64,000 bases of DNA, from IMG/VR virus record IMGVR_UViG_3300005098_000013, positions 14,082 through 78,081 of that record, one strand, 5' to 3'. Position 1 is the first letter of the stretch; the number at the start of each line of letters is the position of its first letter. Both the position numbers and the translations under genes were made by a program. Origin of the DNA: a virus. This document shows positions 7,154 to 61,028 of this stretch, piece after piece. The notes under the pieces are model-generated. The model was not told the origin of the DNA. It did not search any database and worked only from the letters and a program-made list of their open reading frames with translations.

Positions 7154-7981
7154 TTATAGTTTTCCTTCGAACATACTATAAGCATCAAATGGGTGTATGC
7201 TTTCTTGCGAATCACATTCCACCTTGCACCAATGAACGTCTAACTCCTTTAATTGTTCAACAGCATCTCTCACTACATCTTCTACAAACTTGGTGTTTTC
7301 ATGCATATACTCCACCGCCCTCTTTTCGTCTGGCCTTTTCAATATGTTATAGACAGGCGAAGAGAATGACTTATGCGCAATTTCCACCAACTCTTCTGCG
7401 CTAACTTCTACCAACTCAGTTAGAACCTCTACTTCAATCCTTAATGTGCAGCGTTGATTATGAGCAACTCCATTTTTGCACATTTCCCTGGCACAAGGGC
7501 AGCAGGTTGCTCCAATCACTTCTACACCTAAAGTTGGCTTCTCTCCTGACTTTGCATAACCTAGAAGCTTGTATACCTCACCTTTTGCCTCTCTTTCTGC
7601 CCACAATTCCACTTCAGCAAACTCACAATACTCACTTCTTCTCTTAATATCATCAGCAATGCTCCTTGCTAACCATTCAATGCCTCTCGTTTCCTTTGGA
7701 AACACCAAATTCTCTTCCATTGCCTGTACCAAACGAGATAAGTGAGCGCCTCTTTGATCTTTCGGCAAACTCAGATACAAATTTGCATTGATTATCACTT
7801 CCCTGTCTGATTCTGGCCGATGTATGATTATCGGCATCCTTACCCCTTTCAAACCCACTCTATTCAATGCTACACTCTCTACTACTTCATTCTGGACATC
7901 TCGTTTTCCTACCATACTGCTTTGGTCTTCACCTCTCTTATACATTCTTATTTCTCCTCCTTCCATCTGCTTCTTTTTCAT
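7154..7981 (-). CDS. folE2: GTP cyclohydrolase IB (FolE2/MptA family)
   Basis: RGAHLSR, TCCPCA, AHNQR, LKRPDEK, FVEDVVR, ESIH motifs. Confidence 0.92.
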   Translation of the reverse strand: MKKKQMEGGEIRMYKRGEDQSSMVGKRDVQNEVVESVALNRVGLKGVRMPIIIHRPESDREVIINANLYLSLPKDQRGAHLSRLVQAMEENLVFPKETRGIEWLARSIADDIKRRSEYCEFAEVELWAEREAKGEVYKLLGYAKSGEKPTLGVEVIGATCCPCAREMCKNGVAHNQRCTLRIEVEVLTELVEVSAEELVEIAHKSFSSPVYNILKRPDEKRAVEYMHENTKFVEDVVRDAVEQLKELDVHWCKVECDSQESIHPFDAYSMFEGKL

Positions 7982-10718: not shown

Positions 10719-11744
10719 ATGGCAGAGCAAAGTAAAATGAAAATAGAATCGCTAAGGCGTAGTGTAGAGAAGAAGTTAGGCGTTACAAGAGAAGCGTTCG
10801 ATAAGGTAGTAGAGGCAAAGAGGGGTCTAGTGAAGAAAAACAGCCCAGATCTGTCTGAGGCTGATGTAGAGAAGAGAGTGTTCTTGCTAGTAAAAAGCGA
10901 GTACAAGAAGCAACTGATGTCGCCAGCAATAAATTTTGAAGGTGTAGTGTTGAGCTGGGGAAGAACATTTGATTCAGTAGCACAGATGAGAGCAGATGCG
11001 ATGGAAGCAATGAAAAGAGATGAGGAGCAGGCAATAGCAGAAGGGTATGTAGATGTAGATGGATACCCGTTGGATACAAGAGAAGTGTACAAGTCAGGAC
11101 AACCAAACAGGCAATATGGAAAGAGATTGCCAAAGCACAACTACATACGCAACCTGATAGGTGTGTGCATATATGAAGAGGTACCAAGGCTGTTCAGACT
11201 TGTGTTGAGCGATGTAGTGCCTGTAGACAAGCCAGTTGATCCGGCTACATTGAAAACAAACTTAGAGGTGCCAATGTTTGTGCCTGTAGAGTTCAGGGCT
11301 AACGTGGCAAAAACGCAAAGAGACGATAGGTTTTTGCAGCTGAATCAATCGAAAAGTACTGACTTCAGGTTAAGTGATGCAGAAATAGACATTGCAAACG
11401 TAATGAACTCGGAATTGCTGGATCCCTTCAGAGTAACGCCAGAAGAAGTTGGCGACTACTACGATGCACATGCAACACAACCTGAAAGACTAGTGATAAT
11501 GGAAGGATCTGTGATGATGATAGGTGAAGAGGGCAGCGCTTCAGGTGATGTGTTAGTGATGGTCGATAGTGAAGAGAGCGGCTTTGATTTCATGGGAGTC
11601 AGGTGTTGGGTGCCAAGCAATCTGTTGGAGAAGGCTGATATAGAAGAAGGAGATGTGGTAACTATAATTGGGCAGGCAAACCGTGGAACCTTTGGAGATG
11701 AATCCGTGGATATGGTCAATGTGACCGGTATCTATACGAAATGA
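10719..11744 (+). CDS. putative OB-fold ssDNA-binding (RPA-like) protein
   Basis: C-terminal OB-like strands (EGDVVTIIGQ, VNVTGIY); replication context. Confidence 0.5.
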   Translation: MAEQSKMKIESLRRSVEKKLGVTREAFDKVVEAKRGLVKKNSPDLSEADVEKRVFLLVKSEYKKQLMSPAINFEGVVLSWGRTFDSVAQMRADAMEAMKRDEEQAIAEGYVDVDGYPLDTREVYKSGQPNRQYGKRLPKHNYIRNLIGVCIYEEVPRLFRLVLSDVVPVDKPVDPATLKTNLEVPMFVPVEFRANVAKTQRDDRFLQLNQSKSTDFRLSDAEIDIANVMNSELLDPFRVTPEEVGDYYDAHATQPERLVIMEGSVMMIGEEGSASGDVLVMVDSEESGFDFMGVRCWVPSNLLEKADIEEGDVVTIIGQANRGTFGDESVDMVNVTGIYTK

Positions 11745-12559: not shown

Positions 12560-14446
12560 ATGGGTTGGGATAAGATAAGCGGAAAAAAGGACCAGAAGAG
12601 CCCAGAAGAGAAGGATAAGGAAATAGGAAGTTGGATTACTGCACAACAGAAGATTGAGGTGTCGCCGATTAACTTGGTGGTGTACGGTTTAGATGGTACT
12701 TGTAAGAGCAGCGCTTGTATAGATATCAGAGAAGCCAACGAGATGGATAAGAAGGTGTTTGTAATTGACATAGACGGATCTGCAGCTCCTATTAAGGAAG
12801 CATATTGGAATAATGATGGGAATATAATGATAGTGGATCCAGTGGAGATAACGGTAGAAGGTGACATTGATTGGATTGCTTCATATAATAGAATTTTAGA
12901 TACTTGCAAGTGGCTACGCAAGCATGAGGTTGAGTTGAATCTAAAAGGTGTGGTATTAGATGGCCTAGACACTCTGCTTAAAATATGTGTGGCAGGAGAC
13001 ACTACTATTTATCCGATGGGTTTGCCGCCAATGAAAATTTCGGAATATGTTGAAACTGGAATGACTGTTCCAATTATGACAAGAAGCGGATATGAAACAC
13101 CTTTGCGAACTTTTAAGTTGAAATCCCAATTAATAAAAATAGGCTATGCTTCAGGAGATGAGATTTGTGTAACACCGGACCATCCGTTGCTTGGTACTAG
13201 GGAATATTGGAGCAAACTTGAATTTATACCAGCTTCTGAATTGCAAATCGGTATGAGGTTAGCGGAAATCATGTATGGCCCACAATTTCCATGCTATGGT
13301 TATTCTGCAGCAAAGGCAAAATTTATAGGTATGATGGTTGCGGAAGGGTCAATGACACGCCACTATTCGCCCAAAATTTCAAATAATAAAATTGAACCTG
13401 TAGAATTAGCGCTTAAAGAAGCTTTCCCAGAATGTTATCTTAAACGAGATAGCAAAAATCAATATTCAATTAACTATAGAAAAAACAAAGATGACAAACA
13501 TAGAAAAAACCCGATGAGAACAGAATTGGAACAATTGAAACTTTGGAATTCATATAGCCATACTAAATTTATCCCTGATGTTATAAAATACGGTCCAATT
13601 GAGACAATATCTGCTTTTTTTGACGGATATATTTTTGGTGACGGGTGGCAAACCAAAACAAAAACCGGAAAAAGAATAGGTATGTATACAGTTTCAAAGC
13701 AGCTTGCAGAAGACTTAAGGTTTATTTTATGGAGGCTTGGCAAAAGAACAACTTTATATGTAAACAGATATCACAATGAAGTGGGAAGCAATAAGATGTT
13801 TAGCGATTATCAAGCGAGAATTGGATACGGTATTAGTGTTGATGAACCGGAAATTGCAAATGTCAAAGGTGACGTACGTCTTAAACCCATAAAAACAATT
13901 GAAAGGCTGTCTGGTCTACATGATGTATATGACCTTCAAATGCCATCTGGTAATTTCATAGCAAACAGAATTGTAAATCACAATTGCGAGTACAAAATGA
14001 AGGTAGAAGATCTCAAGGTTAACCCTGCAGCAAGAGTGACCGATTTGTGGTCGTGGCAATTTCGCAACTCTGCTTTCCTTTTGGTAGTGAAGCTCATTAA
14101 AGGTCTTAAGTGTGATAGGCTTTATACGACGCACTTAAAGGAATTGAAAGGATGGGTACAAGAGTCAAAAGGCAAAACTCTAGCCACTACTGGATATGTG
14201 CCAGAATATGAAAAATCAACGCCAAACTTAATGTTCCAAAAATTAAGTGCAACAAGAAATGATAAGGGAAAAGTTGTGGAGTGGAAGGTAAAGGTTGAAA
14301 AGAGCAAGACTAACAGTGCGCTTGAAGGCAAAGAGTATGAAGTGCTTAGGGTGGATCATGCTAAGGATGAGGTTAGTTGGCATGGCATTAAGGAATTTTT
14401 GAGGGAATGCAGACATAAAGAGGCAGGAAGAAATGAGAGGGTGTAA
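12560..14446 (+). CDS. P-loop ATPase (AAA_24/Sak4-like) with LAGLIDADG intein
   Basis: Walker A variant GLDGTCKS, VIDID, Walker B VVLDGLD. Confidence 0.75.
   Translation: MGWDKISGKKDQKSPEEKDKEIGSWITAQQKIEVSPINLVVYGLDGTCKSSACIDIREANEMDKKVFVIDIDGSAAPIKEAYWNNDGNIMIVDPVEITVEGDIDWIASYNRILDTCKWLRKHEVELNLKGVVLDGLDTLLKICVAGDTTIYPMGLPPMKISEYVETGMTVPIMTRSGYETPLRTFKLKSQLIKIGYASGDEICVTPDHPLLGTREYWSKLEFIPASELQIGMRLAEIMYGPQFPCYGYSAAKAKFIGMMVAEGSMTRHYSPKISNNKIEPVELALKEAFPECYLKRDSKNQYSINYRKNKDDKHRKNPMRTELEQLKLWNSYSHTKFIPDVIKYGPIETISAFFDGYIFGDGWQTKTKTGKRIGMYTVSKQLAEDLRFILWRLGKRTTLYVNRYHNEVGSNKMFSDYQARIGYGISVDEPEIANVKGDVRLKPIKTIERLSGLHDVYDLQMPSGNFIANRIVNHNCEYKMKVEDLKVNPAARVTDLWSWQFRNSAFLLVVKLIKGLKCDRLYTTHLKELKGWVQESKGKTLATTGYVPEYEKSTPNLMFQKLSATRNDKGKVVEWKVKVEKSKTNSALEGKEYEVLRVDHAKDEVSWHGIKEFLRECRHKEAGRNERV
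12986..13984 (+). mobile_element. intein (333 aa) with LAGLIDADG homing endonuclease
   Basis: Starts CVAGDT, block B VTPDHP, FIGMMVAEG and FFDGYIFGDG, ends VYDL..NFIANRIVNHN followed by Cys. Confidence 0.93.
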
Positions 14447-20243: not shown

Positions 20244-20624
20244 ATGGGAAAGGATAGGTTTTCTATAAGAAGGGAATTAGGGATTGCAATAGCACACAAA
20301 TTACCTTGGCACTCAGGTAGATGTTCGAATATGCACGGTCACGGTCTAAAAATTGCAGTAACACTAAGCAGAAAAGATGGTGGCTTAGATGAGAATGATA
20401 TTGTATATGATCTAGGCTATCTAAAGGAAGCGTTAGATGAAATTGACGAAAGGTTAGATCACACATATCTGAACGATACTTTAGAGAATCCGACATCGGA
20501 GAATGTAGCAAAATATGTTAGAGATAAGGTAATGCAATATCTTGAAAAGAGAAAAGCCGGTGTAAAGGTGACAAAAGTAGAAGTGGAAGAGAGTCCAGGT
20601 TCAGGAGTGATACTAGAATGCTAA
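20244..20624 (+). CDS. queD: 6-carboxy-5,6,7,8-tetrahydropterin synthase
   Basis: AHKL..CSNMHGH, LDHTYLN, NPTSEN. Confidence 0.93.
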   Translation: MGKDRFSIRRELGIAIAHKLPWHSGRCSNMHGHGLKIAVTLSRKDGGLDENDIVYDLGYLKEALDEIDERLDHTYLNDTLENPTSENVAKYVRDKVMQYLEKRKAGVKVTKVEVEESPGSGVILEC

Positions 20625-20805: not shown

Positions 20806-21444
20806 ATGTTGGAAATTAATGAAATCTTCGAATCGATACAAGGAGAAGGTCTTTTAACAGGAAAGCCATTTACGTTTATAAGATTGCAAGGTTGCAACCT
20901 GAGATGTAGTCACTGTGATACGAAGAAGGCATGGAAGAAAGGAGAAGGTGTAATGATGAGTGAAGAAGAGATAGCGGCAAAAGTAGAGGAGTTTGGACAT
21001 CAGTGGGTTGAAATTACTGGAGGCAATCCATTGCTGCAAAACTTACAACCATTACTAGTGAAGCTTCGCTATACTAAAGAAGGCAAATTGAACAACCGAA
21101 GAATAGAATTACAAGCAGACTGTAGCCTGAATCCTATGCAATACGCCCTAATTTCAAGAGTTTCGCTGAGCCCTAAGTTAAGTTCAAGCGGCATGACTAA
21201 ATACATGCACTATGAGTACATGTACTGGTTGAATCCTGGTGATGAGGTTAAGTTTGTCGTAAGCAATGCGGATGATTTTAACGAAGCAATTAGGTTGCTT
21301 CAGGAATACCCGACCAAGGCACAAGTGGTGATGCAGCCAGTTCATGGCAAAAACGGCAAGTGGATTGTAGAAAAGGTTTTAGATGAACATATAGAAAACG
21401 TTAGAGTATTGCCACAAGTTCATAAGGTGTTCGGACTAAGATGA
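20806..21444 (+). CDS. queE: 7-carboxy-7-deazaguanine synthase (radical SAM)
   Basis: SIQGEG, CNLRCSHCDT, ITGG, SPK, PQVHK. Confidence 0.93.
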   Translation: MLEINEIFESIQGEGLLTGKPFTFIRLQGCNLRCSHCDTKKAWKKGEGVMMSEEEIAAKVEEFGHQWVEITGGNPLLQNLQPLLVKLRYTKEGKLNNRRIELQADCSLNPMQYALISRVSLSPKLSSSGMTKYMHYEYMYWLNPGDEVKFVVSNADDFNEAIRLLQEYPTKAQVVMQPVHGKNGKWIVEKVLDEHIENVRVLPQVHKVFGLR

Positions 21445-41321: not shown

Positions 41322-44099
41322 TTAAAGCATCCTCTCTAGTTTGTGTAAGGTGGCGTCTACGGCCTCATCAATTATGGATCTGAATCCAGGCAGTGTTTCC
41401 TTGGTAAGACTAATACGCGCACCACTAAACATGCTTACTTGTACACCTCGGCTAACATTGCTTGAAACTTCAGCCATCCCAATTTTCATAGCCTTAAGCT
41501 TGTCTGCAACCGAAACTTCAACGCCTATACTTGGCGCTTCAACCATTAATTTTGGTATCTTTGGAGCTTCTATTCTCGGAACCTCAACTCTTTCTACAGT
41601 CTCTAGCATCACCGAAGGCTTTGCTACTTCTGGGAATTCTGCAATGCCAATAGTCTCAGGTGCTCTAATCTTATTTGCAACCTTTGACCATCGTTCAAAA
41701 TTCTTAACATTCTCACCTGAATACTTCGCGCTTAATTGCAAAGCTTCCCAAAACGCAGGACTATGACGCTTGATGAATACAGCATTGAAAATTTTGCCTA
41801 ACTTCCTCGTTATAGTTTCCCATTTCAAGAAAAGAGCTACTATAATTGTCACTGCTGCTGCGATTCCTAGAAGCACTGCCCAAACTGGAAAGGTAACACC
41901 CATAAATGTAAATGCTGCTGCTGTTAGTACGACATAAGCTTCAGTAGCAGCGAAAAGAGAAGCGACTAGAAGCCACATTGCTGCAGCTTGAAGCTTAGTT
42001 ACAATCGTAGCGCCTATGGTTGCTATCTTATTCCAGACCTGTGCTGCCGTCAATTTTATTGTAGCAGCTGATAGCGCAGAAGCAGAAATTGCAGCCTCTC
42101 CTGTTGTTGATGCCAAAAAAAGGTTTGCTATTGCAACAAGTTTAGAGGCAACATAATTCCACACCATTACTGCTCTATTCTTTACTAATGATACAGTAAG
42201 CTTATCAAACGAAAAAGTAAGGAATTGAATTGCTGGTGTCACTAAAAACATCAGAGTAAGACCGTACTTGTTCATCCATTCGTTTCCTTTCTTTGTGCCT
42301 TCTGAAAGAATAAGCATGGAGAAAAGCATGGGGCCTGCCATGAGCGCCCATTGCCTAGCCATCGCAATTGAATGTTGCCTTGCTCTCAAAGTTGCTAATT
42401 GTATCTCGCCCCCGAGAAACCTGAAACCGTTAGTAACAAGTTGTTGTGTGCCAAAAAGCCTATTATATACGTCTATAACCTCTTCCGTTGTATATTTCAG
42501 TTTTAGTTCATGATTTATTTCCCATTGCAAAGCCAAAACATCTGCTTCGCGTTGCTGAGCTAAAATTACCAAAGCCGCAACAAGCATGAATATACCACCA
42601 ACGGACATTGCAATCACTCCGCCGAAGTGTGCTATTGTGCCGATAACCAACATAAAAATTGAAAAGACTCCAAGCAATGCAGGATGCACTTCAGCTAATG
42701 CATCTACTATTAATTTCAATCCGCTATACCATGCCTTATACAGTCTAGCTGTAGGACCTGCCATCATTACTCTAAGCTTATCTAAAGATGACTCATATTG
42801 AATGATAACACCATGAAGATCTTCAAGACGTTTCTTAGCTAGCGCATGTGCCATGGTAACGTCATTAATTGCTGCCTCCATCCTTTCCATTGTATCAATG
42901 CCCTTTATAGTATCCTTAATCCATTCCTTCTGTGTATATGAAAAATTATCAAAGGTTTTGTCTAACTTTATTATTCCTTTGTTGCTTGCTGCATATTGTT
43001 CCATCAGACTCTTAAGTGCTTTTTTGCCATCTAAATGAGTAGCCTCTTCAATTGCCCATGCTGCTTGTGCTGCATTGAGCGTATCTATAGTTGGTTGAAT
43101 TCCTTCCTCTCTTGCTTTTTTCATGATTTTAGCCCAGGAAGACCAATTTCTTGCACCAAAAAGGGCAGACAGATAAACTGCTCTAATACTAGGATCAAGA
43201 CCACCGTAAGCCTCGTTCAGTATTTTTATCATGTTAGCAAGCCCATTGAACTTACCATTCAGGTCATAAATTCCCTTTTCAGCGTTCTCATTTGCTTTCC
43301 TTAACAGTTCAGAGGCCTCAGTATACTTAACTGTACCTTTGCCAGCAACACCTAATGCCTTTGAAACTCTCGTAATTCCTTCTCTCCAATATCTTCCTGC
43401 CCTTCCACCCCTGATACCTGCATCAGCAGAAATCATCATGTATGCAGTTGTATCTGCTAATGAGATTCCAAACTCTTCTGAAGCAGCTCCTGCATAAGAC
43501 ATACTGGTAGCTAATTCTTGTACCGTTAGGTTTGAATTAGTAATAGCCGTGGCTACAAGATTTACTACACCACCTAACTCATCTTGTGCGATCCCAAATT
43601 GATTAGTAACATCGATTGCGAACCTAGTAGCTTCAGTGTGACTAACCATACCAATAGTTGCCAACTCCAAGGTTGCGCCTACGGCTTTGATCACTTCATT
43701 TTCATCTTCAAACTTTTTCCCTGCTAAGGCAAAGATGCGGCCAACTTCTGCAGCTTGAACAGAGGTCCATTCTGTGGTCTTTCCGAGTTCTAAGAATCCT
43801 TTTCTAAGATCAGCAGTTTGATCCTCGGTTGCCTTCATTATGCTGCTTGTAATGGTAACTTGATGGTCAAACGTTCTGAACGCTTCTATGTTCGCAGTTG
43901 TTACAGAAAGCAGCGCATTGCCAAGGCGAGTGGCCATTGCGCCTGCTGCTAAGAGTCCAAAGCTCAAATACAGATAGGCAGTCCTAAGAGTTTGAGTAGC
44001 TGAAACTAAATCGAGCTGCTTCGCTCTAAGGTCTATTATCTTGTTCCTTAAACGCGTAGCTCCTGTCTCTCCGAAAAACGCGTGTAATTCAAATGGCAT
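41322..44099 (-). CDS. tail tape measure protein
   Basis: TP901-type core (LGKTTEWTSVQAAE, ADAGIRGGRAG, ALFG); Ala-rich hydrophobic region. Confidence 0.92.
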   Translation of the reverse strand: MPFELHAFFGETGATRLRNKIIDLRAKQLDLVSATQTLRTAYLYLSFGLLAAGAMATRLGNALLSVTTANIEAFRTFDHQVTITSSIMKATEDQTADLRKGFLELGKTTEWTSVQAAEVGRIFALAGKKFEDENEVIKAVGATLELATIGMVSHTEATRFAIDVTNQFGIAQDELGGVVNLVATAITNSNLTVQELATSMSYAGAASEEFGISLADTTAYMMISADAGIRGGRAGRYWREGITRVSKALGVAGKGTVKYTEASELLRKANENAEKGIYDLNGKFNGLANMIKILNEAYGGLDPSIRAVYLSALFGARNWSSWAKIMKKAREEGIQPTIDTLNAAQAAWAIEEATHLDGKKALKSLMEQYAASNKGIIKLDKTFDNFSYTQKEWIKDTIKGIDTMERMEAAINDVTMAHALAKKRLEDLHGVIIQYESSLDKLRVMMAGPTARLYKAWYSGLKLIVDALAEVHPALLGVFSIFMLVIGTIAHFGGVIAMSVGGIFMLVAALVILAQQREADVLALQWEINHELKLKYTTEEVIDVYNRLFGTQQLVTNGFRFLGGEIQLATLRARQHSIAMARQWALMAGPMLFSMLILSEGTKKGNEWMNKYGLTLMFLVTPAIQFLTFSFDKLTVSLVKNRAVMVWNYVASKLVAIANLFLASTTGEAAISASALSAATIKLTAAQVWNKIATIGATIVTKLQAAAMWLLVASLFAATEAYVVLTAAAFTFMGVTFPVWAVLLGIAAAVTIIVALFLKWETITRKLGKIFNAVFIKRHSPAFWEALQLSAKYSGENVKNFERWSKVANKIRAPETIGIAEFPEVAKPSVMLETVERVEVPRIEAPKIPKLMVEAPSIGVEVSVADKLKAMKIGMAEVSSNVSRGVQVSMFSGARISLTKETLPGFRSIIDEAVDATLHKLERML

Positions 44100-49019: not shown

Positions 49020-49418
49020 CTACTTTAACAACAGTGGCACAGTTCCACTTGCAACCAATGAAGTTGTGTTCATTGCATAACCCACGACAGATCTTGTTAG
49101 CGCTACTGAATTGATAGTGACTTTCTTGACCTTTCCAGCTGCTGCACAAACTAGTTCGTCCATAAAGTTGACCGGAAAACCTGACTCAACCGTTACTTCA
49201 GCGACTCCTTTGATAAGCCCGCGCATATCCCGATTTGTTGCAGCTGCAGTAACTGTGTCCATTGCAATGGCAAACTTGCCCTCATCAGCATCATCGACTG
49301 GTTCAAAGCCGTTACCTTCTTCCTTTATGACTTGACCTTTAGTCACTAGCGTTGCGATTTTTGCATCTTCGTTCTTTACTAATATATCATATTCCTGATA
49401 CGGATCTCCTACTGCCAT
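49020..49418 (-). CDS. capsid decoration/cement protein
   Basis: Position; DELVCAAAGK, VVGYA. Confidence 0.6.
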   Translation of the reverse strand: MAVGDPYQEYDILVKNEDAKIATLVTKGQVIKEEGNGFEPVDDADEGKFAIAMDTVTAAATNRDMRGLIKGVAEVTVESGFPVNFMDELVCAAAGKVKKVTINSVALTRSVVGYAMNTTSLVASGTVPLLLK

Positions 49419-50027: not shown

Positions 50028-50192
50028 TTAATCCGTCTCGAACCCATGATTTTCGTAGAACTCCTCGAGTGCTTGCCTAATTACATTAGACCGAGATTCT
50101 GGTTCATGCCATATTGGGTCGAAATGAGTCTTGCAATATCTTGCTATCTTCTCTACTTCTTCTTCCAACATATAAATGCAACAACGTGCCAC
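50028..50192 (-). CDS. ribbon-helix-helix protein, 54 aa, not in ORF track
   Basis: Hand translation from GTG: MARCCIYMLEEEVEKI...SRSNVIRQALEEFYENHGFETD. Confidence 0.55.
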   Translation of the reverse strand: MARCCIYMLEEEVEKIARYCKTHFDPIWHEPESRSNVIRQALEEFYENHGFETD

Positions 50193-50273: not shown

Positions 50274-53200
50274 CTAAGCTGCTGGCTTTTCTATTATACA
50301 CTCTGCACATGCTGGTGCTTCCGTTAGGGTAAGCTCCACATACTCTTTAATCTGTTTCACTACCTTCTTGGTTCTGTCTACATTAAGCAGCGCATCTATA
50401 GAGTAACCCTTTGCTTTTTTCTTTGCGAATTCAATGCCTTCAGGATCTGTAATTAGCGAGACCACTTCTATATTATCACCGTTTAAGGTTACTTTAGTCG
50501 GCTTTCCAACTTCCTTTTCGCGTATGTGTTCTATGCAGACTGGAATATCCATGATTCTTTCAGGCCTGTCCCTGACTACTTCAGGCGGAAAGTACCAATT
50601 GTTCCAAACACCGGAGCTAAGAGCAATGCCTGGCACTTCAAGACCTTCTTCGGTTTCTTTGAACGGTGAAGAGAATGGGATAAAAGACATTTGGACAAAT
50701 TCTTCTTCAGATTCTGTAGAAGGCACCTCTTCAGAACGTTCAAAATTCCACACTCCTTGTGGTGTAGAACGCTTCATAATCCACATGCCTTTGAGACCAG
50801 AAGCAAAGTTGAATTTCTTGAAAAGCTTATCATCCTGAAGTATATTTACTTTGCCCTTCACATGTGTGATAAGAAAAGCAGGTGTGTTTGGTTTTTCATT
50901 TTCAGGTGTGCCTGGTTTTAATTCGACCTCTTTCTTGAATTCCTTCCAGAATTGCGGGCGCAACACGTTTGTTTCTTCACGAGCGTTCATAGATGATTCT
51001 TTTAGCGGGTCTTTATCTAGCCTGAATTGCATCTTTCCAATCTTCAAGTCATACTCTTCATAAGTCGGGCCTTCACGAACTATATAAGGGCCTCGATACC
51101 ACCTGTGCTGAATTATGAAATCCTCAGCAGCCTCTTGCACTTCCTTTTGAGTAAGCAAATCTATTTCTCTTTCAGAAAGTTTACTCTTAATTTCATTCCA
51201 AAGCTTTTCGTACGTTTCAGACTTCTCTTCTGATACACTATATACCATCTTGCCTGCTTGGATACGCCTTGCAATTTCCTTGTATATCTTGACTGCAACC
51301 CCTTCAATTTCTTCTTTTGTGTACTTAATACTTTTGTGTGGATCTAAAGCAGTAGCATACCAGCCTACTGAAATTCTTGCATCGTCCATAAGTTGTTGAT
51401 TAGTCATGTGTTCTGGATCATATGTGCTTATATCTTTGATAAGCTCAAGCCTCTTTTCCTTGAAATACTCAATGAGCTCTGCTCTTTTTTCCTGTGCAGC
51501 ATCACCGCTTGATTCCCAGAACCTTAACTCCTGTGGCACCTTATTTTTGATTTTTTTAGGTAAAGCCGAAATTCCGTGAGGTGGTAGCCAACCAGTTCGT
51601 CGAGCTCTTGCAGAAAGAACATAAGGGGTTTGATCTTCAGGCTTTGAGAAGAACCAAATGAATGCTGGACGCTTATTATATGGATTAGGAATGAGAGTTG
51701 CTACAAAACGGCCTTTGTATTTACGACCATGCAAGAAATATTCTGCCATGTGTGATTTCTTAGAGCCGTGCTCAACTCTGCCTTTGTCATCGATTACAAA
51801 CACACCTTCTTTTTCCTTAGTCGCACCGACTTGTCCTTTAGGCACCGTGCCTTCAACTGTTAACCAAGGTTTGGGTTCAGGTGCTTTTTTTATGGCTTGA
51901 ACTTTGAAAAACTCATCATCCGTTTTCCACTTCGACGCGCGAACTACTTTTTTAGCTTCTGACAGGCTGTCGACATCCTCCTTGATCTCACCTTCTATTT
52001 GGTTCAGGAGAGTGAAGCCTTCGAGATGATCGTTTGCTTCCACACGAAAGTCTACATGAACTGACTTGCCTCTGAAGTGGTACTGGACCACGAAGTTATA
52101 AGTCTTCTCTTCAGACGGATACCGAGCCAACATCAGAGGTAACTTTTCACCTTCGGAAAGCTCAATGGAAGACAGGCCCTGTGATTCTTTTATTTCATCT
52201 AAAGTTTCCTGGCGCTGAAATTCCTCTTGGAGATCTTGCATTGATTCAACTTGCTTAAAACTTACATCCTTGAGAGAGTCGAGCATTTCATGAAAGTCTG
52301 TATTTATCAAAAAAGCTCTGCTATAAAGAACTACTTCCTTGATATTGTATTTCTTAGCTGACTCTTCAATAAGCACTTGCCATTCTGCCAAATTCATGTC
52401 GAAGAAATCATAGTTCTCAACTTCTACCCAACTTGGTACCAGTCCGTATTTTCTTGAGAGCACTACATAGGGAATGTTGTGAGCCTCACAAAAACTGATA
52501 AAGTTGTGAATCGGCTTTGAAGGAGACCAAAGTTGTTTTGGTGTGCCGCTACGGATTTCCTTGTTCTTTGGCGCAGCACACATAATAGCTGCAAACTTGC
52601 CTGCGGCCAACTTCTTCTCCTCAAGCAGATCTGACTTCTCTGCAATGTCTAATGCTTCTTTAGTTGTATCTGGGAAACGCTGTTGCGGGCGAAGCTCATA
52701 GAATCTGGGTTCGTAAATCCTAATTCTGTCACCTTTTTCACTATGATACCAAAAAAGAGTGTGGAAGATTACTGTAACAATATCACCCGGATTGCAAAGC
52801 GTTGCAGTATTGAACGTCTTGCCTATGTAGACATAATTGGCATCTTTGACCTTGCAGAGGTCTGCTTCCTGGGGTTGAAAGTCTGAAGTTGCTTTAAGGC
52901 CAACTTCATATACATACACACCCTTTGTTGCCGTTTCGATACGCTTAAGCACTGCAACGTGCAATTCACTTACAACCTTGTACTTGGCCCATTCACTGGT
53001 CATACCCGTGAGTGGATAAGTGGAACTCATTAGTTTGACCATTGAGCCTTCTGACCCTTCAAGCTTAGACACTCTTTCCACTTCTTTCCTGATTTCAGAT
53101 TCAGTTGTGGCAGTGTGTGAGACAAGACGGTTGAAGTGCGAAATGCTAGGTTTCGGTAATTCATCTTTGGCTTGTCCCAAGTCTATTAAATCTAAATATT

Positions 53201-53876
53201 GATGCCTGACGCGAAGTTCTTCGTTATGAAGATCGCCAATCTCGGTGTCTAAGTTATGCTTTTCTAATTTAGGGTCGCTAAAGTAAAGAATATCAAACAC
53301 ATTTGCCACAATATGTGAATCGTTCGGCTTGTCTTTCTTATTGACATAGCCTGAAACCGTTTCGCGGCCTTGATGAATTCCGTTTTCATAGCCTTCTGTT
53401 TCACTGTCTAGCAGGAACGTTTCAACCGGGATTTTTTTGAGCTGATCAACAGCTTTTGGAAACCTACTAGTTCTGTCTTCACCAGATTCTAGGAAGACCT
53501 TTATCTTGTCTTTATGCTTCCACCATAATACTCTAAGGCCATCAGCTTTTCGTTCAACTGAAACTGGACAAATAGTGCCTTTGCATGCATGTTTTATTAT
53601 ATCTAATAGGTCAGGAATGTTGTACGCTTCGTTCTGCCGGTAGCCCTTAACACCTTTAAGAGCTTGGATAGTTTGCAATGGTTTTATAGCTTTAAACGTT
53701 TCGTTCTCTTCCAAAATAAGCTGCTTTATTTCAACCCAGTCTGCTTGCGTTCCAACTGAAGGCTTTTCGATTTGCTCTTCTACAAGCTGAAGTATGTCAT
53801 CTGACTTACTTAACGTACTGGCTACTTCTGGCTTAAACCTAATACCAGCTTCCTTCAACTTGTCTTCCAAAACCAT
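50274..53876 (-). CDS. multidomain protein: ATP-dependent ligase + DUF6884-like + LigD phosphoesterase-like x2 + prohead protease
   Basis: Ligase KADG, LDSE, VFDIL, EGSMVK, WAKYK; LSRKYGLV; FVVQYH..HVDFR; protease IEH, GYSID, ELTLTEAPA. Confidence 0.85.
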   Translation of the reverse strand: MVLEDKLKEAGIRFKPEVASTLSKSDDILQLVEEQIEKPSVGTQADWVEIKQLILEENETFKAIKPLQTIQALKGVKGYRQNEAYNIPDLLDIIKHACKGTICPVSVERKADGLRVLWWKHKDKIKVFLESGEDRTSRFPKAVDQLKKIPVETFLLDSETEGYENGIHQGRETVSGYVNKKDKPNDSHIVANVFDILYFSDPKLEKHNLDTEIGDLHNEELRVRHQYLDLIDLGQAKDELPKPSISHFNRLVSHTATTESEIRKEVERVSKLEGSEGSMVKLMSSTYPLTGMTSEWAKYKVVSELHVAVLKRIETATKGVYVYEVGLKATSDFQPQEADLCKVKDANYVYIGKTFNTATLCNPGDIVTVIFHTLFWYHSEKGDRIRIYEPRFYELRPQQRFPDTTKEALDIAEKSDLLEEKKLAAGKFAAIMCAAPKNKEIRSGTPKQLWSPSKPIHNFISFCEAHNIPYVVLSRKYGLVPSWVEVENYDFFDMNLAEWQVLIEESAKKYNIKEVVLYSRAFLINTDFHEMLDSLKDVSFKQVESMQDLQEEFQRQETLDEIKESQGLSSIELSEGEKLPLMLARYPSEEKTYNFVVQYHFRGKSVHVDFRVEANDHLEGFTLLNQIEGEIKEDVDSLSEAKKVVRASKWKTDDEFFKVQAIKKAPEPKPWLTVEGTVPKGQVGATKEKEGVFVIDDKGRVEHGSKKSHMAEYFLHGRKYKGRFVATLIPNPYNKRPAFIWFFSKPEDQTPYVLSARARRTGWLPPHGISALPKKIKNKVPQELRFWESSGDAAQEKRAELIEYFKEKRLELIKDISTYDPEHMTNQQLMDDARISVGWYATALDPHKSIKYTKEEIEGVAVKIYKEIARRIQAGKMVYSVSEEKSETYEKLWNEIKSKLSEREIDLLTQKEVQEAAEDFIIQHRWYRGPYIVREGPTYEEYDLKIGKMQFRLDKDPLKESSMNAREETNVLRPQFWKEFKKEVELKPGTPENEKPNTPAFLITHVKGKVNILQDDKLFKKFNFASGLKGMWIMKRSTPQGVWNFERSEEVPSTESEEEFVQMSFIPFSSPFKETEEGLEVPGIALSSGVWNNWYFPPEVVRDRPERIMDIPVCIEHIREKEVGKPTKVTLNGDNIEVVSLITDPEGIEFAKKKAKGYSIDALLNVDRTKKVVKQIKEYVELTLTEAPACAECIIEKPAA

Positions 53877-53887
53877 CCTCTTTTCAT

Positions 53888-54178
53888 TTACTCCTGCTGC
53901 TCGTTGGGTTGCTCTTCAGATTGTTTGCCGCTTTTCAGGCCACGTTTTTCCATCTCTGCCTTGACCTTATTATGTATCTCTTCCCACTCTTCCTTGCTAA
54001 ACACCTTTGCTTCGGGCATCTTTAGATACCTAAAACACATCAGGTTTGCAGCCTTGAGCTGATCGTCCTCGAACTTACTAAAGTCCGCATCTTTGAGCTC
54101 TTCTACTTTAAACAGCGCAGCCTCTTCTTCCACTCTACTATACTTAATACCATGCTTTTTCAGTTCCTCTTCTATCAT
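53888..54178 (-). CDS. small helical-module protein
   Basis: FSKEEWEEIHNKVKAEMEKRG resembles segments of both neighbouring proteins. Confidence 0.65.
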   Translation of the reverse strand: MIEEELKKHGIKYSRVEEEAALFKVEELKDADFSKFEDDQLKAANLMCFRYLKMPEAKVFSKEEWEEIHNKVKAEMEKRGLKSGKQSEEQPNEQQE

Positions 54179-54197
54179 TTTACCTCACCTCCTTTTA

Positions 54198-55751
54198 TTA
54201 AATCGCCTCCGATAATTTTTGTAATGTAGGCGAATCATCACGTTGTTCAATACTTAAGCCTTCCGTAATTCTCCTTACATCCTCTTCTGTGGCTGTTTTC
54301 TCGCGAAGAGGTAACCAAATTTCTTTGAGAATAAATGCTTGTTTCTCTTCTAGTGAACTTAGTGATTTGAAGGCGTCGACCAGAGCTTGTTTCTTCTTGA
54401 TGAGTTCTGGCGTATCTGTTTCCTTAGGAATCACTTGTCCTTCTTTAAGTTTTATTGGCTTCTCATCAGGATCTTCTGGTAAGTAGAGCTGGCCGTAGAT
54501 GCTGCTCCAAATATAGCTCATGCTGTCTACTGAATTGAAGCCGTAAAGATTTAGATATTTAAAAACATGAGGGTTTTCGACTCCTAAAGCATGGATTTCG
54601 ATTCCTTGATCTTTTATTTCGTCTAAGATGCCTAATTCTTGAAGCCGCTGCATTGCAAAGACACGTTGCGGTAAACCTCGTGAAGGGTAACCTGCGACTT
54701 GAATACTCTTCCGTCCTATGCCTATAATATCTGGGTTGAGCTTGATAATTTCTCGAATGCAAGCCTCGAACTTGAACGCCGATTGCCCCTGGCCAATCCC
54801 CATAACCTTGCATTCTGGCTTCATATTCAGAAACTCTCTCTGAGCCTTTATCGACTTCTTATCTGAGTCTATATCATACAAGAAATCCGGTGCACATACC
54901 ACATCTGCCTCTACTAGTTTGGAAGCTTCCAGTAGCTGAGATGGCGTTAGCGTTTTGTCGCTGAATGCGCCATTGTCCAGCATTACTCTTATACCAGAAG
55001 CTTTCCAAGCTTTAGCATTTTGAATCTGCTTAGTACTGAGATTGTAAGCGTTGAGCATGACGCCGTCGCAGTAGTCTAAAAGTGGCTCTTGTGCACCTAC
55101 CAGATACAAGTGGAGTTTGTGTGATTGCTCAACTCTTTCTAACGGAAGAATGGGCTGGCATTCCAAAGTTAAAGCAGGCACATGAGAAGTAACTGGACCA
55201 CTTTGAGTAAATTCCGGATTGTCATATAAGAAGTGGATGCGATCCTGAAGCTCTGGAGGAAAGAGTCTGAAAACACGGAAAGCTGTAACCCTGGCGACTG
55301 GATCGTTTTCGCTTGCTTTTATGAGTATGTCTATATCGCCTGTCGTACTGCCATGATTCACTATGCCACCAGTTAGATAGACAAAAGGATGTGCGAGTTT
55401 GACTGGTTTGATATATTGAAGTACATCATCTAAAAAAAGCATTTCCCCGTTCTCATTGTGCTGGGCTGGTTGACCATAGTCTGCACTAAGTTTGGTTGTA
55501 TCTAAGTCATCTATGTTTTGTGGGCGAATGCCTTCTTTTGCCATCGCTTCCAGAAGAAGCTGATAAAGATTCCATATGTCTTCTTTACTCCAAGATTCTC
55601 CATGCTCGATGAAGCTGCCGGTACGCTTTTCAATATGCCATGCTAAATGGAGCCATGCATATACTTCTTGGAGTTCTTCTTTAGAAAGAGAGGAAACGTC
55701 TAAGTCTTTGCTAACTCGAAGTGCCCCTTCCAATGTAAGATCCGAGCTCAT
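54198..55751 (-). CDS. Pol beta-type nucleotidyltransferase fused to TGT/DpdA-like barrel
   Basis: YLTGGIVNHGSTTGDIDIL; VMLDNGAFS, APD, MGIGQG, IHALG, SVDS. Confidence 0.75.
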   Translation of the reverse strand: MSSDLTLEGALRVSKDLDVSSLSKEELQEVYAWLHLAWHIEKRTGSFIEHGESWSKEDIWNLYQLLLEAMAKEGIRPQNIDDLDTTKLSADYGQPAQHNENGEMLFLDDVLQYIKPVKLAHPFVYLTGGIVNHGSTTGDIDILIKASENDPVARVTAFRVFRLFPPELQDRIHFLYDNPEFTQSGPVTSHVPALTLECQPILPLERVEQSHKLHLYLVGAQEPLLDYCDGVMLNAYNLSTKQIQNAKAWKASGIRVMLDNGAFSDKTLTPSQLLEASKLVEADVVCAPDFLYDIDSDKKSIKAQREFLNMKPECKVMGIGQGQSAFKFEACIREIIKLNPDIIGIGRKSIQVAGYPSRGLPQRVFAMQRLQELGILDEIKDQGIEIHALGVENPHVFKYLNLYGFNSVDSMSYIWSSIYGQLYLPEDPDEKPIKLKEGQVIPKETDTPELIKKKQALVDAFKSLSSLEEKQAFILKEIWLPLREKTATEEDVRRITEGLSIEQRDDSPTLQKLSEAI

Positions 55752-57892: not shown

Positions 57893-58186
57893 CTAGCCTC
57901 TGCTAACTAAATGAACCCAGAGATAGATGATGAAGCCTGAAACGATAGCCGCAATGCTAGTTAATAGTTTTGTAATGACGTTAAGCTTGCCTTTCATTAG
58001 CTGTTGCTTCTTCTCAAGTTCTTGTATCCGCTCGGTATGGTCCTTGAACGTTTCGGCGCCATGATTCAGTGCTTTGAGTATATGCTTTACGTCATTCCTG
58101 GTTTCAATAATTATTTCCAATGTTTTCTTGTCAAGTTCCATTTTAGTTACATGCCTCATAACAATCTGCTGCGTTTTGTGCGGCAC
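57893..58186 (-). CDS. XhlA-like coiled-coil membrane protein
   Basis: ERIQELE coiled coil plus C-terminal TM helix. Confidence 0.55.
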   Translation of the reverse strand: MPHKTQQIVMRHVTKMELDKKTLEIIIETRNDVKHILKALNHGAETFKDHTERIQELEKKQQLMKGKLNVITKLLTSIAAIVSGFIIYLWVHLVSRG

Positions 58187-58817
58187 TCAAAGCCCTGTTG
58201 TAGATGCGGACTTCGTCGATGGTGCCGTTGAATTGATAGTTTGGAACCGAATATTTCCTATTGCCAATTCTTAACACATCATCATTTGCAATAAGTGCGT
58301 AGTTATAATCTTTTTCATCTTCAACCCCATTTTTGTAAAACCTTACTTTGGTTCCAGTATAAACAGCAGCTAAATGTTGCCATTCACCAACAGTTGGAGA
58401 TAAATCACTTTGAAGGTCATGCCAATTAGAACCATCATAGGAGACAAAATTAAGTTTATTATTGGTAAAACCAAAATGATAGTTGGTTGTAAGCACATCT
58501 CTGTCGCCTTTCACTACAATTGCTCTATCGCCACTTATATCGTTCGGTTTCACCCACGCCTCAATCGTAATCTCATCAGTAATATTCAAACTCTCATCAT
58601 TCCCGCAATCACAAAAGGCGGAAGTGCCATTGAACTTGCCAGCGTTGCCATTCTTGCCGATACCCCATTCAACATCTGTGAACGCTGCGTGGTTGTGATG
58701 TCGTGAATAGTCTTTTGCAACGTTGCCTATGCCCTCGGTGAAAGGCACATGAAGCCGCAGACCTGGATCTATGTCAGGTTTCATGTAACCTACAACTTTA
58801 GCCATTGCAGCAATCAT
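58143..58817 (-). CDS. LamG / concanavalin A-like domain protein
   Basis: ITIEAWVKP, WQHLAAVY, FNGTIDEVRIYNRALS. Confidence 0.9.
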   Translation of the reverse strand: MIAAMAKVVGYMKPDIDPGLRLHVPFTEGIGNVAKDYSRHHNHAAFTDVEWGIGKNGNAGKFNGTSAFCDCGNDESLNITDEITIEAWVKPNDISGDRAIVVKGDRDVLTTNYHFGFTNNKLNFVSYDGSNWHDLQSDLSPTVGEWQHLAAVYTGTKVRFYKNGVEDEKDYNYALIANDDVLRIGNRKYSVPNYQFNGTIDEVRIYNRALSAAQNAADCYEACN

Positions 58818-59546: not shown

Positions 59547-61028
59547 CTACACTACGACCTTCACTATTCCTCTTGCACCGAAAGATTTGCGAAAAGCCGG
59601 AGAGTGAACGCTGGTAATTCTGGGAATTGGAGAAATACTGAAGGTGCCTGCAGCTGAAACTGCATTGGCTAAGGCATCTGCGACGTCTTTGCTACCTGTC
59701 TTTCTATGATCTACCTTAGTACCGCGAATTAGTTCCAGTTCTTTGAGTTCCTTTACCAAAATGGGGCTTAGATAGAAACTTATCATGTCACTATAGATAA
59801 GTTCCTTAAGCCTGTCGTGTTCCTTCTTCTCCGTATGGTTCTGAACCACTCTAATTCCAGCCTTTTCTATTTTCTGCAAGGTCTCAGGATAATTCCACAC
59901 ATCTGTTGTGAAGCTTACAATCCCTGGAAACCTTTCTGCTATGTCTATAATAAACTGTGCCACTTGGAACGCATCAATTTCGCGTCGCCCTGAAGGCGCA
60001 AAACGATGGACTAGGTCTACTATGCACTTATGATCACTGAAGTGCACAAGAGCCAGGCCAAAGGCATCGTTCTTCACTGCCGGATCACCTGCCAAAAAGT
60101 AGCGTTGTTCAGGAGAAGTTTGCCTGAACCATTCTGCCATGCTTCCATCAGGCAAGATGGGATCTGGCCTGAGAGGATCGATGCATTTATCTATGCTTTG
60201 CGGATCCTTGTAGTAGTTTTCTATGACTAGGCTGGGCTCTGCACCATAGTCTCTTTGAGCCATGTCGGGATTCTTTTGAAACTCAGGTTCGAGAGACTCG
60301 CGCGTGATGTTAGGGTTCACTAACCATGTAGGTAATTGATACCCCAGCATATATTCTGAATGCTTTGACATCTCATAGAGTGTCATGATTACGTCGTCTA
60401 CAGTTACTGGCGATGATATAGATACTATAAGACCTTCATTACCAAAAGTCTTTACTGACCTAGATAATGAATGATAGACATTCCAACCTGAAGCGTTGCC
60501 TTTTGTATCTTTGAACCTTGCCAGCTCATCAAAGAGAACCAGTTTTGCAGTGTGGCCTACTAAGCTTGAAGAGTTAGCGTGCGCACTTCTTATTATAACA
60601 TTGGGATCTGGAAAGATGAGTTCATTGTATCTTTCTTTACATTCACCAGTTTCGATTAGACTTTTGAAATAAGGAGAGTGATGAACCAATTCCTTGTCAG
60701 CCGCAAATACAGTATCGGACGCCTGCTCTTTTGACGTCGCGGTGTTTATGATAAAGATAGCCTGGCCTGGTGCTAAGTTATAGTGTTCAGCAGGGTTGCC
60801 AAGTTGGATTAGTTTGAATGTCTCATACAAACTAATAACTGCAGCCAACCTTGTCTTGCCACTTCTCATTCCACAAATTGCCACAAGCTCATTATAAGGA
60901 CCCTTGTAGAATTCTTCCAAAATTTCTGCTTGCTTAGGGAAAAGCTTGAACTTGAGAATGTAATCTACGAAGTAAAGAGGGTCTAAGGTTGCCTTGAGCT
61001 CCTTCCTGAAATCCGAAGTCAGGCTCAT
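59547..61028 (-). CDS. terL: terminase large subunit
   Basis: Q motif FPKQ, Walker A GMRSGKT, Walker B LVLFDE, ISSP, nuclease GDPA and KDVADA. Confidence 0.93.
   Translation of the reverse strand: MSLTSDFRKELKATLDPLYFVDYILKFKLFPKQAEILEEFYKGPYNELVAICGMRSGKTRLAAVISLYETFKLIQLGNPAEHYNLAPGQAIFIINTATSKEQASDTVFAADKELVHHSPYFKSLIETGECKERYNELIFPDPNVIIRSAHANSSSLVGHTAKLVLFDELARFKDTKGNASGWNVYHSLSRSVKTFGNEGLIVSISSPVTVDDVIMTLYEMSKHSEYMLGYQLPTWLVNPNITRESLEPEFQKNPDMAQRDYGAEPSLVIENYYKDPQSIDKCIDPLRPDPILPDGSMAEWFRQTSPEQRYFLAGDPAVKNDAFGLALVHFSDHKCIVDLVHRFAPSGRREIDAFQVAQFIIDIAERFPGIVSFTTDVWNYPETLQKIEKAGIRVVQNHTEKKEHDRLKELIYSDMISFYLSPILVKELKELELIRGTKVDHRKTGSKDVADALANAVSAAGTFSISPIPRITSVHSPAFRKSFGARGIVKVVV

Follow-up and report, generated by a model that had tools for sequence, protein, structure and literature searches.

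IMG/VR virus record IMGVR_UViG_3300005098_000013 is a 78,081-bp sequence of an uncultured tailed virus, classed as linear and 86% complete. In the window that we analyzed (the whole stretch of 64,000 nucleotides, bases 14082–78081 of this record), three genes on the minus strand, P0003, P0002 and P0001, are bracketed by a portal gene and a scaffold-like gene. Together they encode a probable small nucleotidyltransferase (NTase), a barrel with the fold of tRNA-guanine transglycosylase (TGT) and DpdA, an ATP-dependent ligase, a DUF6884-like domain, two LigD-type 3′-phosphoesterase (PE) domains and a capsid maturation protease (Table 1). Read-through from one gene to the next was considered and rejected, as each lies in a different frame. 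That the three genes form one functional unit seems to us very likely. The explanation we favor, with the arguments for and against it about evenly balanced, is that they are the split version of one head-module polyvalent protein, whose cargo is packaged and delivered with the DNA.

Domains encoded between the portal and scaffold-like genes

The ligase is the part of P0001 that is most readily recognized, since residues 104–300 match PF01068 with an E value of 7e-14 and 52.4 bits, against a gathering score of 26.2. A 10-sequence alignment (31–62% identity) shows no change in the residues of motifs I (KxDG), III, IIIa, IV and V; invariant throughout are K110, D112, G113, R115, D157, E159, E161, F194 and D195 and, further along, E276, G277, K281, W296, K298 and K300. 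NCBIfam ligase models reach 7e-12, which is below their cut-off, and a phmmer search of the PDB with the ligase part gave no match at 1e-3. Residues 301–425 are conserved along with this block and may form an OB domain.

Curated LigD models all score far below cut-off in P0001. For the first PE domain (PE1), LigD_N (PF13298) gives an E value of 0.0027 and 18.3 bits (cut-off 31.1) and TIGR02777 gives 4e-6 and 26.6 bits (cut-off 144); the best-scoring relative reaches 1.4e-5. However, when a PE1 profile built from 18 family sequences was compared with the whole PDB, its sole matches were the LigD PE chains 3p43, 3p4h, 3n9b and 2lj6. H600, H607, D609 and R611, which make up the pattern QxH...HxDxR, are each present in at least 90% of 34 sequences. 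The most conserved stretch of the family follows PE1 and lies outside the recognized catalytic domains, at P0001 residues 746–805 (51462–51641 of the window, minus strand). In this extension P751, S770, P773, P781, W787 and R798 are invariant across the 34 sequences, and the overall pattern is DQTPYVLS...W.PP.G.SALPK.IR.K.P....YW.

Residues 816–1200 of P0001 were modeled with AlphaFold2 (AF2) from a 31-row alignment, with a mean predicted local distance difference test (pLDDT) score of 87.5. The linker module that follows PE1 consists of four helices in this model and has no specific fold match. Beyond it, the second PE domain (PE2; residues 917–1048 of the model) superposes on the archaeal LigD PE structure 3p4h with a VIA-align Z of 13.2 and a root-mean-square deviation (rmsd) of 2.2 Å over 110 of 118 residues, and on the Pseudomonas LigD PE structure 3n9b with a Z of 11.4. 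Foldseek also retrieves 3p4h (5.8e-4, TM score 0.72). PE2 has no match to curated LigD PE hidden Markov models (HMMs), and the family HMMs of PE1 and PE2 match each other's domains.

Between the ligase and PE1 lies a domain that matches DUF6884 (PF21818) with an E value of 0.03 and 14.8 bits, below the curated threshold of 30; the same family is found in three relatives, with a best E value of 1.5e-7. The Pfam curators describe DUF6884 by the motifs CxxxK and LSAxxG, tie it to YaaA and propose that it has a role in the recognition of DNA lesions (PMC11701544). In P0001 the first motif is C433-AAP-K437 and the second, in the looser form LSxxxG, is L473-S-RKY-G478. The C, S and G of these motifs are invariant in six sequences.

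The C-terminal domain of P0001 has the assemblin/gp21/HK97 protease fold. VIA-align places the model (residues 1068–1187) on the varicella-zoster virus protease (1vzv) with a Z of 10.8 and on T4 gp21 (5jbl) with a Z of 10.5, the latter over 120 residues at an rmsd of 2.8. Herpesvirus proteases are also found by Foldseek at about 1e-3, with gp21 at a TM score of 0.54, and the Foldseek probability for the fold is 1.00. H1117, S1159 and P-A are invariant in 31 sequences, and the position of the His and Ser suggests that they are the catalytic pair. A hydrophobic-Ser pattern seems to recur immediately ahead of the domain. When the protease family HMM was run against all six frames of the record it found P0001 alone (6e-37), with nothing else up to an E value of 10. 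With the Peptidase_S78, S49 and ClpP models there was no match to the P0001 domain, to any of ten homologues that stand alone, or within the genome; the S77 and S21 models were not run. The P0001 protease is thus the only one found in the 78-kb record, although with the record 86% complete a further gene on the missing DNA is possible. A tblastn search of phage records with the protease domain gave no match.

P0003 starts with a helical module (pLDDT 73–88) whose homologues recur in the P0001 linker module and in 32 of 40 related loci; HMMs of the P0003 module and of the P0001 link region match the same regions in relatives. The segment that follows is probably an NTase of the Pol-beta superfamily, although this is the weakest domain call of the set. 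Its pattern, hG[GS]-x(9-13)-DxD, is represented by G131 (GG), D143 and D145, which are invariant in 27 sequences. There is no Pfam match. A family profile compared with the PDB finds the nucleotidyltransferase 9xbd best (0.005), then Pol beta and Pol X at 0.08–0.3 and an MNT antitoxin, while the ESM Atlas neighbors of the segment are NTP_transf_2/Polbeta proteins with TM scores of 0.5–0.6. The AF2 model is poor here (pLDDT 30–60). In P0003 the NTase is an insertion, absent from the close homologues P0005–P0009 (80% identical, about 400 amino acids), whereas in most relatives it stands directly ahead of the ligase. The nearest ESM Atlas model to residues 93–208 is a viral cluster of 288-amino-acid Peptidase_S78 proteins (TM score 0.68 over 108 residues), a model-based likeness that hints that other viruses, too, have NTase-like domains joined to prohead proteases. 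A 762-amino-acid bacterial cluster with a ligase domain is a further neighbor.

The rest of P0003 is modeled with high confidence. Among the 50 Foldseek matches listed for the barrel, all are TGT or DpdA, led by TGT 2pot (1.6e-9) and DpdA 7ui4 (2.2e-9). VIA-align gives a Z of 18.6 with the archaeal TGT 1iq8 (ArcTGT), 18.1 with 7ui4 and 17.8 with TGT, whereas generic TIM barrels reach at most 15.3. Although the fold is that of DpdA and TGT (7ui4, 1iq8, 2pot), similarity at the sequence level is nearly undetectable, being limited to phrog_887 (3.4e-7 over 100 residues), and the CxCxxC...H zinc cluster is not visible. Invariant residues of the barrel are D259, D289, Q321, G346, R347 and D409; the three Asp residues occur in DNG(A/I)F, PD and DSM contexts and may correspond to D102, D156 and D280 of TGT. 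The remaining protein, P0002, is not matched by the helical-module HMMs and resembles their WSKED...EM.KRG pattern by eye only.

We hold these domain identities, for P0001 and P0003 taken as a whole, with high confidence. The first-pass annotation had placed the three genes at exactly the coordinates given here, and each of its domain assignments was borne out, if least firmly for the NTase, that of the ligase by the Pfam threshold and those of PE2, the protease and the barrel by structural models. Its description of the P0001 domain as the only recognizable prohead protease also agrees with the six-frame HMM search and with the negative S78, S49 and ClpP results.

Relatives, shared core and the viral preQ0 pathway

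A phmmer search with P0001 against 1.84 billion cluster representatives returned 1550 matches, 429 of them below 1e-30. In the top 150 relatives (median length 1254 amino acids, maximum 2241), the ligase and PE1 occur together in 141, accompanied by PE2 in 107, and the NTase is present in 100 and the protease in 26. The NTase-ligase-PE-PE core is found in hundreds of metagenomic proteins. Among 34 family members, 29 match PF01068, and accessory domains comprise the D12 N6-adenine DNA methyltransferase (10 members), the pyrimidine-dimer DNA glycosylase Pyr_excise (5), metallo-beta-lactamase (3), DUF6884 (3) and C5 DNA methyltransferase (1), together with inteins and LAGLIDADG domains. LAGLIDADG_3 is present in four of the 34, and intein or Hint models match others.

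For a scan of IMG/VR loci we used the 10-sequence alignment, as the 34-sequence alignment has no stretch that is conserved enough and P0001 as sole query yielded no loci. The scan returned 50 loci, 40 of which (window included) contain the polyprotein. A portal gene was detected at most three genes upstream of the polyprotein in 20 of the 40 and a major capsid protein (MCP) gene at most four genes downstream in 27. In 13 loci the protease is fused to the polyprotein, and in another 13 it is encoded either immediately after it or one gene further on; in the window and 26 related loci its gene lies between the portal and the scaffold/MCP genes. Three loci (L014, L015 and L017) have a single open reading frame (ORF) of 1652–1676 amino acids that runs through helical module, barrel, NTase, ligase, PE1 and PE2 to the protease at its end, and so unites all that is divided between P0003 and P0001 in the window. 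These ORFs fit the proposal of the first-pass annotation that P0003, P0002 and P0001 act as one unit, and its expectations of similar unannotated fusions in metagenomic viruses and of cargo that varies around a fixed core were met by the phmmer and IMG/VR searches and by the Pfam content of the 34 members. A minimal PE-PE2-protease protein occurs at L033 and L034. Elsewhere, a 789-amino-acid protein (L032 12607–14976) joins the maturation protease to the MCP, and a P0003 homologue (L006 1816–4014) has an insertion of about 200 amino acids between the helical module and the NTase.

In a tree of protease domains the 13 fused forms group together with 98/93 support, and the branches inside this clade are long, which argues for a single, old fusion that has been retained. 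The domain shares with HK97 gp4, T4 gp21 and assemblin its fold, the invariant His and Ser and a gene position just upstream of scaffold and MCP. When not joined to the cargo, the protease stands at the head of a protein of 370–450 amino acids, resembling the protease-scaffold fusion of herpesviruses; Pfam searches of ten such proteins gave no protease family and one weak Phage_scaffold match, in the C-terminal half. Unlike all of these, the protease of the fused clade is the C-terminal domain of a cargo protein of 586–1719 amino acids and has lost the scaffold tail.

The named members of the family come from archaeal sources. One, in a Methanophagales (ANME-1) metagenome-assembled genome (MAG), is annotated as a hypothetical protein. 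The other, in the putative ANME-1 virus ANMV-1, is annotated as an "ATP-dependent DNA ligase" and has the order NTase-ligase-PE1-PE2 right after a portal-like gene. Because of these two members an archaeal host is likely for the family, and this virus itself probably has one too. A profile search of genome contigs gave as its sole match a stand-alone ligase in a bacterial MAG, with no provirus or host link, and TerL, at most 28% identical to the terminases of bacterial phages, gives no host. The portal-like gene of ANMV-1 (KP703175, AJP62005; L004 1913–3193) is annotated as a "MutT-like phage hydrolase" and matches the portal HMM over residues 41–253. From its sequence and its place directly upstream of the ligase polyprotein, this protein may be a portal and not a hydrolase.

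How far does the family resemble LigD, the protein of bacterial and archaeal end joining with which it had been compared? As in LigD (3n9b, 3p4h, 3p43, 5dmp), an ATP-dependent ligase is combined with a 3′-phosphoesterase fold that has a His/His/Asp/Arg site, and in the family core a nucleotidyltransferase belongs to the same protein. To this extent the earlier comparison stands. It does not extend to the polymerase, as the archaeo-eukaryotic primase (AEP) type of LigD is replaced by an NTase of about 110 amino acids that is minimal and of the Pol-beta/MNT type; no AEP or primase family was found among the 16 Pfam families in the 34 members, nor in P0001 or P0003. On sequence grounds, the NTase need not be a polymerase. 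The PE domains also differ from LigD in being in tandem, PE1 with a large insertion and the conserved extension, and in their viral head-module context. Taken with the glycosylase and methyltransferases of relatives, the chemistry that the domains suggest (cleaning of 3′-blocked ends, sealing of nicks or ends, and repair or exchange of bases) appears closer to strand-break or base-excision repair combined with DNA modification than to classical nonhomologous end joining (NHEJ), for which an AEP polymerase is missing.

Pseudomonas LigD PE acts on 3′-ribonucleotide and 3′-phosphate ends. With such substrates in mind, one can imagine that the proteins are an injected RNA-repair or counter-defense effector, in which the PE domains heal the 2′,3′-cyclic or 3′-phosphate ends that host anticodon nucleases or HEPN RNases leave behind, the NTase rebuilds 3′ ends, the ligase reseals tRNA or mRNA and the TGT-like barrel acts on tRNA. 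The RNA_ligase model does score in two family members, the NTase would belong to the MNT/CCA-adding superfamily and TGT enzymes classically act on tRNA. Nevertheless, we judge this improbable, because the ligase scores highest with DNA-ligase models, the accessory domains of relatives (D12 and C5 methyltransferases, pyrimidine-dimer DNA glycosylase) are DNA enzymes, DUF6884 has been linked to DNA lesions (PMC11701544) and there is no 5′-kinase domain of the kind required for RNA healing and sealing by T4 Pnkp-type systems.

The virus has a complete set of preQ0 pathway genes in two operons, comprising QueC and a FolE2/MptA-type GTP cyclohydrolase on the minus strand and QueD and a QueE-like enzyme on the plus strand. 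FolE (PF01227) and canonical TGT (PF01702) were not found in the record. QueC is present in all three barrel-bearing genomes that are long enough to test, the record of the window included, and in 2 of 11 barrel-less genomes; both complete barrel-less genomes are without it. A second, short TGT-like gene lies by the replication genes. Its product matches short stand-alone barrel proteins of QueC-bearing genomes (L057:670–1470 and L058:225–947) at about 1e-12 and the head-module barrel only weakly in a direct profile match (hhalign probability 29%). These sequences suggest that such viruses have two TGT-like genes, the first close to the replication genes and the second as part of the head polyprotein. 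A 341-amino-acid ORF (10719–11744) was also considered as a transglycosylase and was rejected after PDB and PHROG searches.

Proposed packaging and delivery of the cargo

In the explanation that we favor, the core of a small NTase, an ATP-dependent ligase and two LigD-type PE domains is supplemented by other DNA enzymes in different lineages: the TGT/DpdA-fold base-exchange barrel and the YaaA-like DUF6884 in this virus, and N6-adenine and C5 DNA methyltransferases, pyrimidine-dimer glycosylase and metallo-beta-lactamase domains in relatives. In this clade the cargo sits N-terminal to the sole maturation protease, and the protease domain would carry it into the procapsid and then cut the polyprotein, so that the enzymes remain with the DNA and enter the host along with it. 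In the host cell, where ATP and Mn2+/Mg2+ are available, 3′-blocked ends would be cleaned and nicks sealed or genome ends joined, possibly together with base exchange or repair, before the genome is lost to host nucleases or to stalled replication.

Several findings support this, among them the single-ORF fusions, the place of the polyprotein between portal and MCP genes and the old, retained fusion described above. Since P0001 holds the only protease found in the record, a working capsid needs the polyprotein at the site of assembly. The accessory domains of relatives act on DNA. The ligase motifs and the His/His/Asp/Arg set of PE1 vary little or not at all. The virus makes preQ0, and QueC is encoded by each of the three barrel-bearing genomes of sufficient length. 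The slot behind the portal is that of a minor capsid protein that resembles MuF and can be fused to a maturation protease, and MuF-toxin fusions are predicted to be virion components (PMC7302621). For polyvalent proteins encoded next to head genes, entry into the host together with the DNA has likewise been predicted (PMC5512222). From the fusion, the slot and these two analogies, we lean toward packaging of the cargo via, or with, the protease; that the enzymes then act on the viral genome at or after delivery, a step argued by the same analogies, falls slightly short of even.

The similarity to polyvalent proteins is considerable. As in that class, several enzymatic domains stand in one chain and vary around shared hubs, the gene adjoins portal and head-morphogenesis genes, a processing peptidase belongs to the chain, and delivery with the DNA is predicted (PMC5512222). 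The peptidase here is, however, the capsid-maturation protease itself and not the zincin type, and neither an ATP-dependent DNA ligase nor a LigD PE or TGT-fold domain appears in the published survey, which also found polyvalent proteins to be scarce in archaea, with nearly all those above 1000 amino acids bacterial (PMC5512222). MuF-protease fusions are alike in that a post-portal gene is fused to the maturation protease and its enzymatic cargo is a predicted virion component, but theirs is MuF with or without a VIP2 ADP-ribosyltransferase, in bacterial hosts, whereas here the cargo consists of DNA-end and base enzymes (PMC7302621). No MuF domain was detected by Pfam in the 34 members. We would place the P0001 family among the virion-delivered polyvalent proteins, as a variant that is new and probably archaeal.

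A number of observations weigh against the favored explanation. The cleavage motif [KE]L[SA][AE], tried as a marker of the domain borders, was rejected because it is not conserved in relatives (10-sequence alignment). The second metal-binding His of PE2 is Glu in this virus and its nearest relative (EEYD), where 11 of 13 relatives have EH[YWF]D. MNT-type enzymes, which the NTase resembles, often act by modifying proteins or small molecules instead of extending DNA. The head-module barrel was detected neither by PF01702, in the whole genome, nor by a PDB profile search, and the short TGT-like gene by the replication genes could be the real DNA-modifying DpdA. A cargo of 135 kDa per protease copy would fill much of the capsid volume. 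There is no cultured relative, and a tblastn search of 50,697 phage records matched ANMV-1 only. Finally, the protease is a separate gene in most members, and fusion is not needed for the function of the core. The fusion therefore cannot be a general targeting device, and packaging of the unfused versions would need another signal.

This last point, a core that is unfused to the protease in most loci, also favors enzymes that are expressed late and stay unpackaged, acting where packaging takes place, on DNA that is replicated or concatemeric, by sealing nicks, trimming ends and inserting 7-deazaguanine just ahead of encapsidation or during it. The protease fusion would then serve timing, stoichiometry or head localization only, and the enzymes would remain outside or leave after cleavage. 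Of the reactions only ligation depends on ATP, a cofactor available in the cytoplasm but not expected inside a sealed capsid; for base exchange, preQ0 would have to be supplied, and this the virus makes late or elsewhere; and the position in the head module ensures late co-expression with terminase and portal. We nonetheless find this explanation unlikely. To our knowledge, the protease domain acts inside procapsids in all studied relatives (HK97 gp4, T4 gp21 and assemblin), and an N-terminal fusion would thus be dragged inside. Moreover, a deep clade has retained the fusion, and packaged minor head proteins occupy the post-portal slot (PMC7302621, PMC5512222).

It is also conceivable, although very improbable, that the domains are mainly structural, as enzyme-derived internal head or core proteins or as a scaffold extension that fills the capsid, with catalysis dispensable. 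The missing metal-binding His of PE2, the highly variable domain content of relatives and the lack of catalytic features in P0002 and the helical modules would all fit such a role. But among sequences with only 31–38% identity neither ligase motifs I to V nor the PE1 catalytic set varies, which is not expected of filler, and the barrel retains three invariant Asp residues.

Returning to packaged enzymes, African swine fever virus provides a parallel, as it packages base-excision repair enzymes (Pol X, ligase and AP endonuclease). A minimal Pol-beta-type NTase, an ATP-dependent ligase and 3′-end cleaning for the virus's own genome would be common to both. There, however, the enzymes are made as separate proteins and the virus is a eukaryotic one, and the NTase profile matches Pol X with an E value of only 0.23. 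A bolder form of the packaging proposal, which we regard as speculative and rather unlikely, is that the capsid of such probably archaeal tailed viruses carries a near-complete strand-break and base-repair pathway (recognition of lesions or exchange of bases, cleaning of 3′ ends, addition of nucleotides and ligation), as one self-processing polyprotein on or beside the maturation protease, that mends capsid-acquired damage or entry cuts before viral genes are expressed. The head barrel would then act as a DNA transglycosylase carried in the virion, separate from the DpdA-like paralogue of the replication region, and the proteins would make up a new class of polyvalent protein in archaea, for which few have been described.

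Bacteriophages are known to deliver toxins, RNA polymerases and anti-restriction factors from the virion. In the literature we found no tailed virus reported to package a ligase together with end-healing enzymes, nor a description of the P0001 family, and the ANME-1 virome paper makes no mention of the protein. If the cargo is packaged, the locus would show how viruses of slow-growing archaea may guard their genomes during long waits or in hot sediment, would add archaeal viruses to the carriers of polyvalent proteins, and would be a natural case of cargo loading via a maturation protease. For biochemistry, the family is a source of ligase-phosphoesterase enzymes that are compact and apparently self-contained, and of a TGT-fold enzyme that has diverged very far.

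Neighboring genes

The coordinates of all features are collected in Table 1. A 186-amino-acid acidic protein is encoded at the downstream edge of the locus and is, by its composition, the probable scaffold. It gave no match in family searches (Pfam, PHROG), and it is kept between polyprotein and MCP in 18 ORFs of related loci. The protein of 132 amino acids encoded next to it, which has a weak scaffold match, looks beta-rich in sequence and may be a head decoration protein instead. A search for MCP homologues found metagenomic proteins only.

Table 1. Genes and domains of the head locus and other features discussed in the text. Positions are those of the window; domain boundaries are given as residues of the protein.
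Feature	Position	Strand	Description
P0003, 517 aa	54198–55751	minus	helical module, probable Pol-beta-type NTase, TGT/DpdA-fold barrel
Helical module, P0003 1–92	55476–55751	minus	helices in model
NTase, P0003 93–208	55128–55475	minus	probable, minimal Pol-beta/MNT-type
Barrel, P0003 209–440	54432–55127	minus	TGT/DpdA-fold TIM barrel, pLDDT >90
P0003 441–517	54201–54431	minus	helical C-terminal extension, pLDDT ~90; conserved in all barrel homologues
P0002, 96 aa	53888–54178	minus	small helical protein, no family match
P0001, 1200 aa	50274–53876	minus	ligase, DUF6884-like, two LigD PE domains, C-terminal protease
N-terminal region, P0001 1–100	53577–53876	minus	homologous in closest relatives only; no family match
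ATP-dependent ligase, P0001 101–425	52602–53576	minus	adenylation domain and C-terminal region
DUF6884-like, P0001 426–560	52197–52601	minus	YaaA-related; PF21818 and motifs
PE1, P0001 575–815	51432–52154	minus	LigD-type 3′-phosphoesterase; insertion and highly conserved C-terminal extension
Helical linker module, P0001 816–915	51132–51431	minus	homologous to P0003 N terminus
PE2, P0001 916–1055	50712–51131	minus	LigD-type 3′-phosphoesterase fold
Prohead serine protease, P0001 1056–1200	50277–50711	minus	assemblin/gp21/HK97 fold
TerL	59547–61028	minus	late gene
Portal, 419 aa	55748–57007	minus	PF04860 5.9e-16; phrog_12 4e-12; upstream edge of locus
54-aa ORF	50028–50192	minus	in 292-nt gap between P0001 and scaffold-like gene; ribbon-helix-helix (RHH)-like by sequence pattern only
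Scaffold-like gene, 186 aa	49421–49981	minus	acidic, coiled-coil-like by composition; downstream edge of locus
132-aa gene	49020–49418	minus	between scaffold-like gene and MCP; phrog_673 0.005 (weak scaffold match)
MCP, 278 aa	48170–49006	minus	phrog_1650 1.3e-12; PF25209 precomputed
Tape measure	41322–44099	minus	late gene
QueC	6390–7133	minus	9.5e-63
FolE2/MptA-type GTP cyclohydrolase	7154–7981	minus	4.5e-46
Short TGT-like gene, 237 aa	15143–15856	plus	just upstream of PolB
QueD	20244–20624	plus	
QueE-like radical SAM enzyme	20806–21444	plus	

In relatives, an ORF of 127–228 amino acids occupies the place taken here by the 54-amino-acid RHH-like ORF, a candidate regulator that the first-pass annotation had overlooked. 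Between TerL and the portal gene, a 224-amino-acid protein (58143–58817, minus strand) matches phrog_8510 at 8e-17, among large virion structural PHROG families. Inteins are contained in two other genes of the window, at 12560–14446 and 7995–9542.

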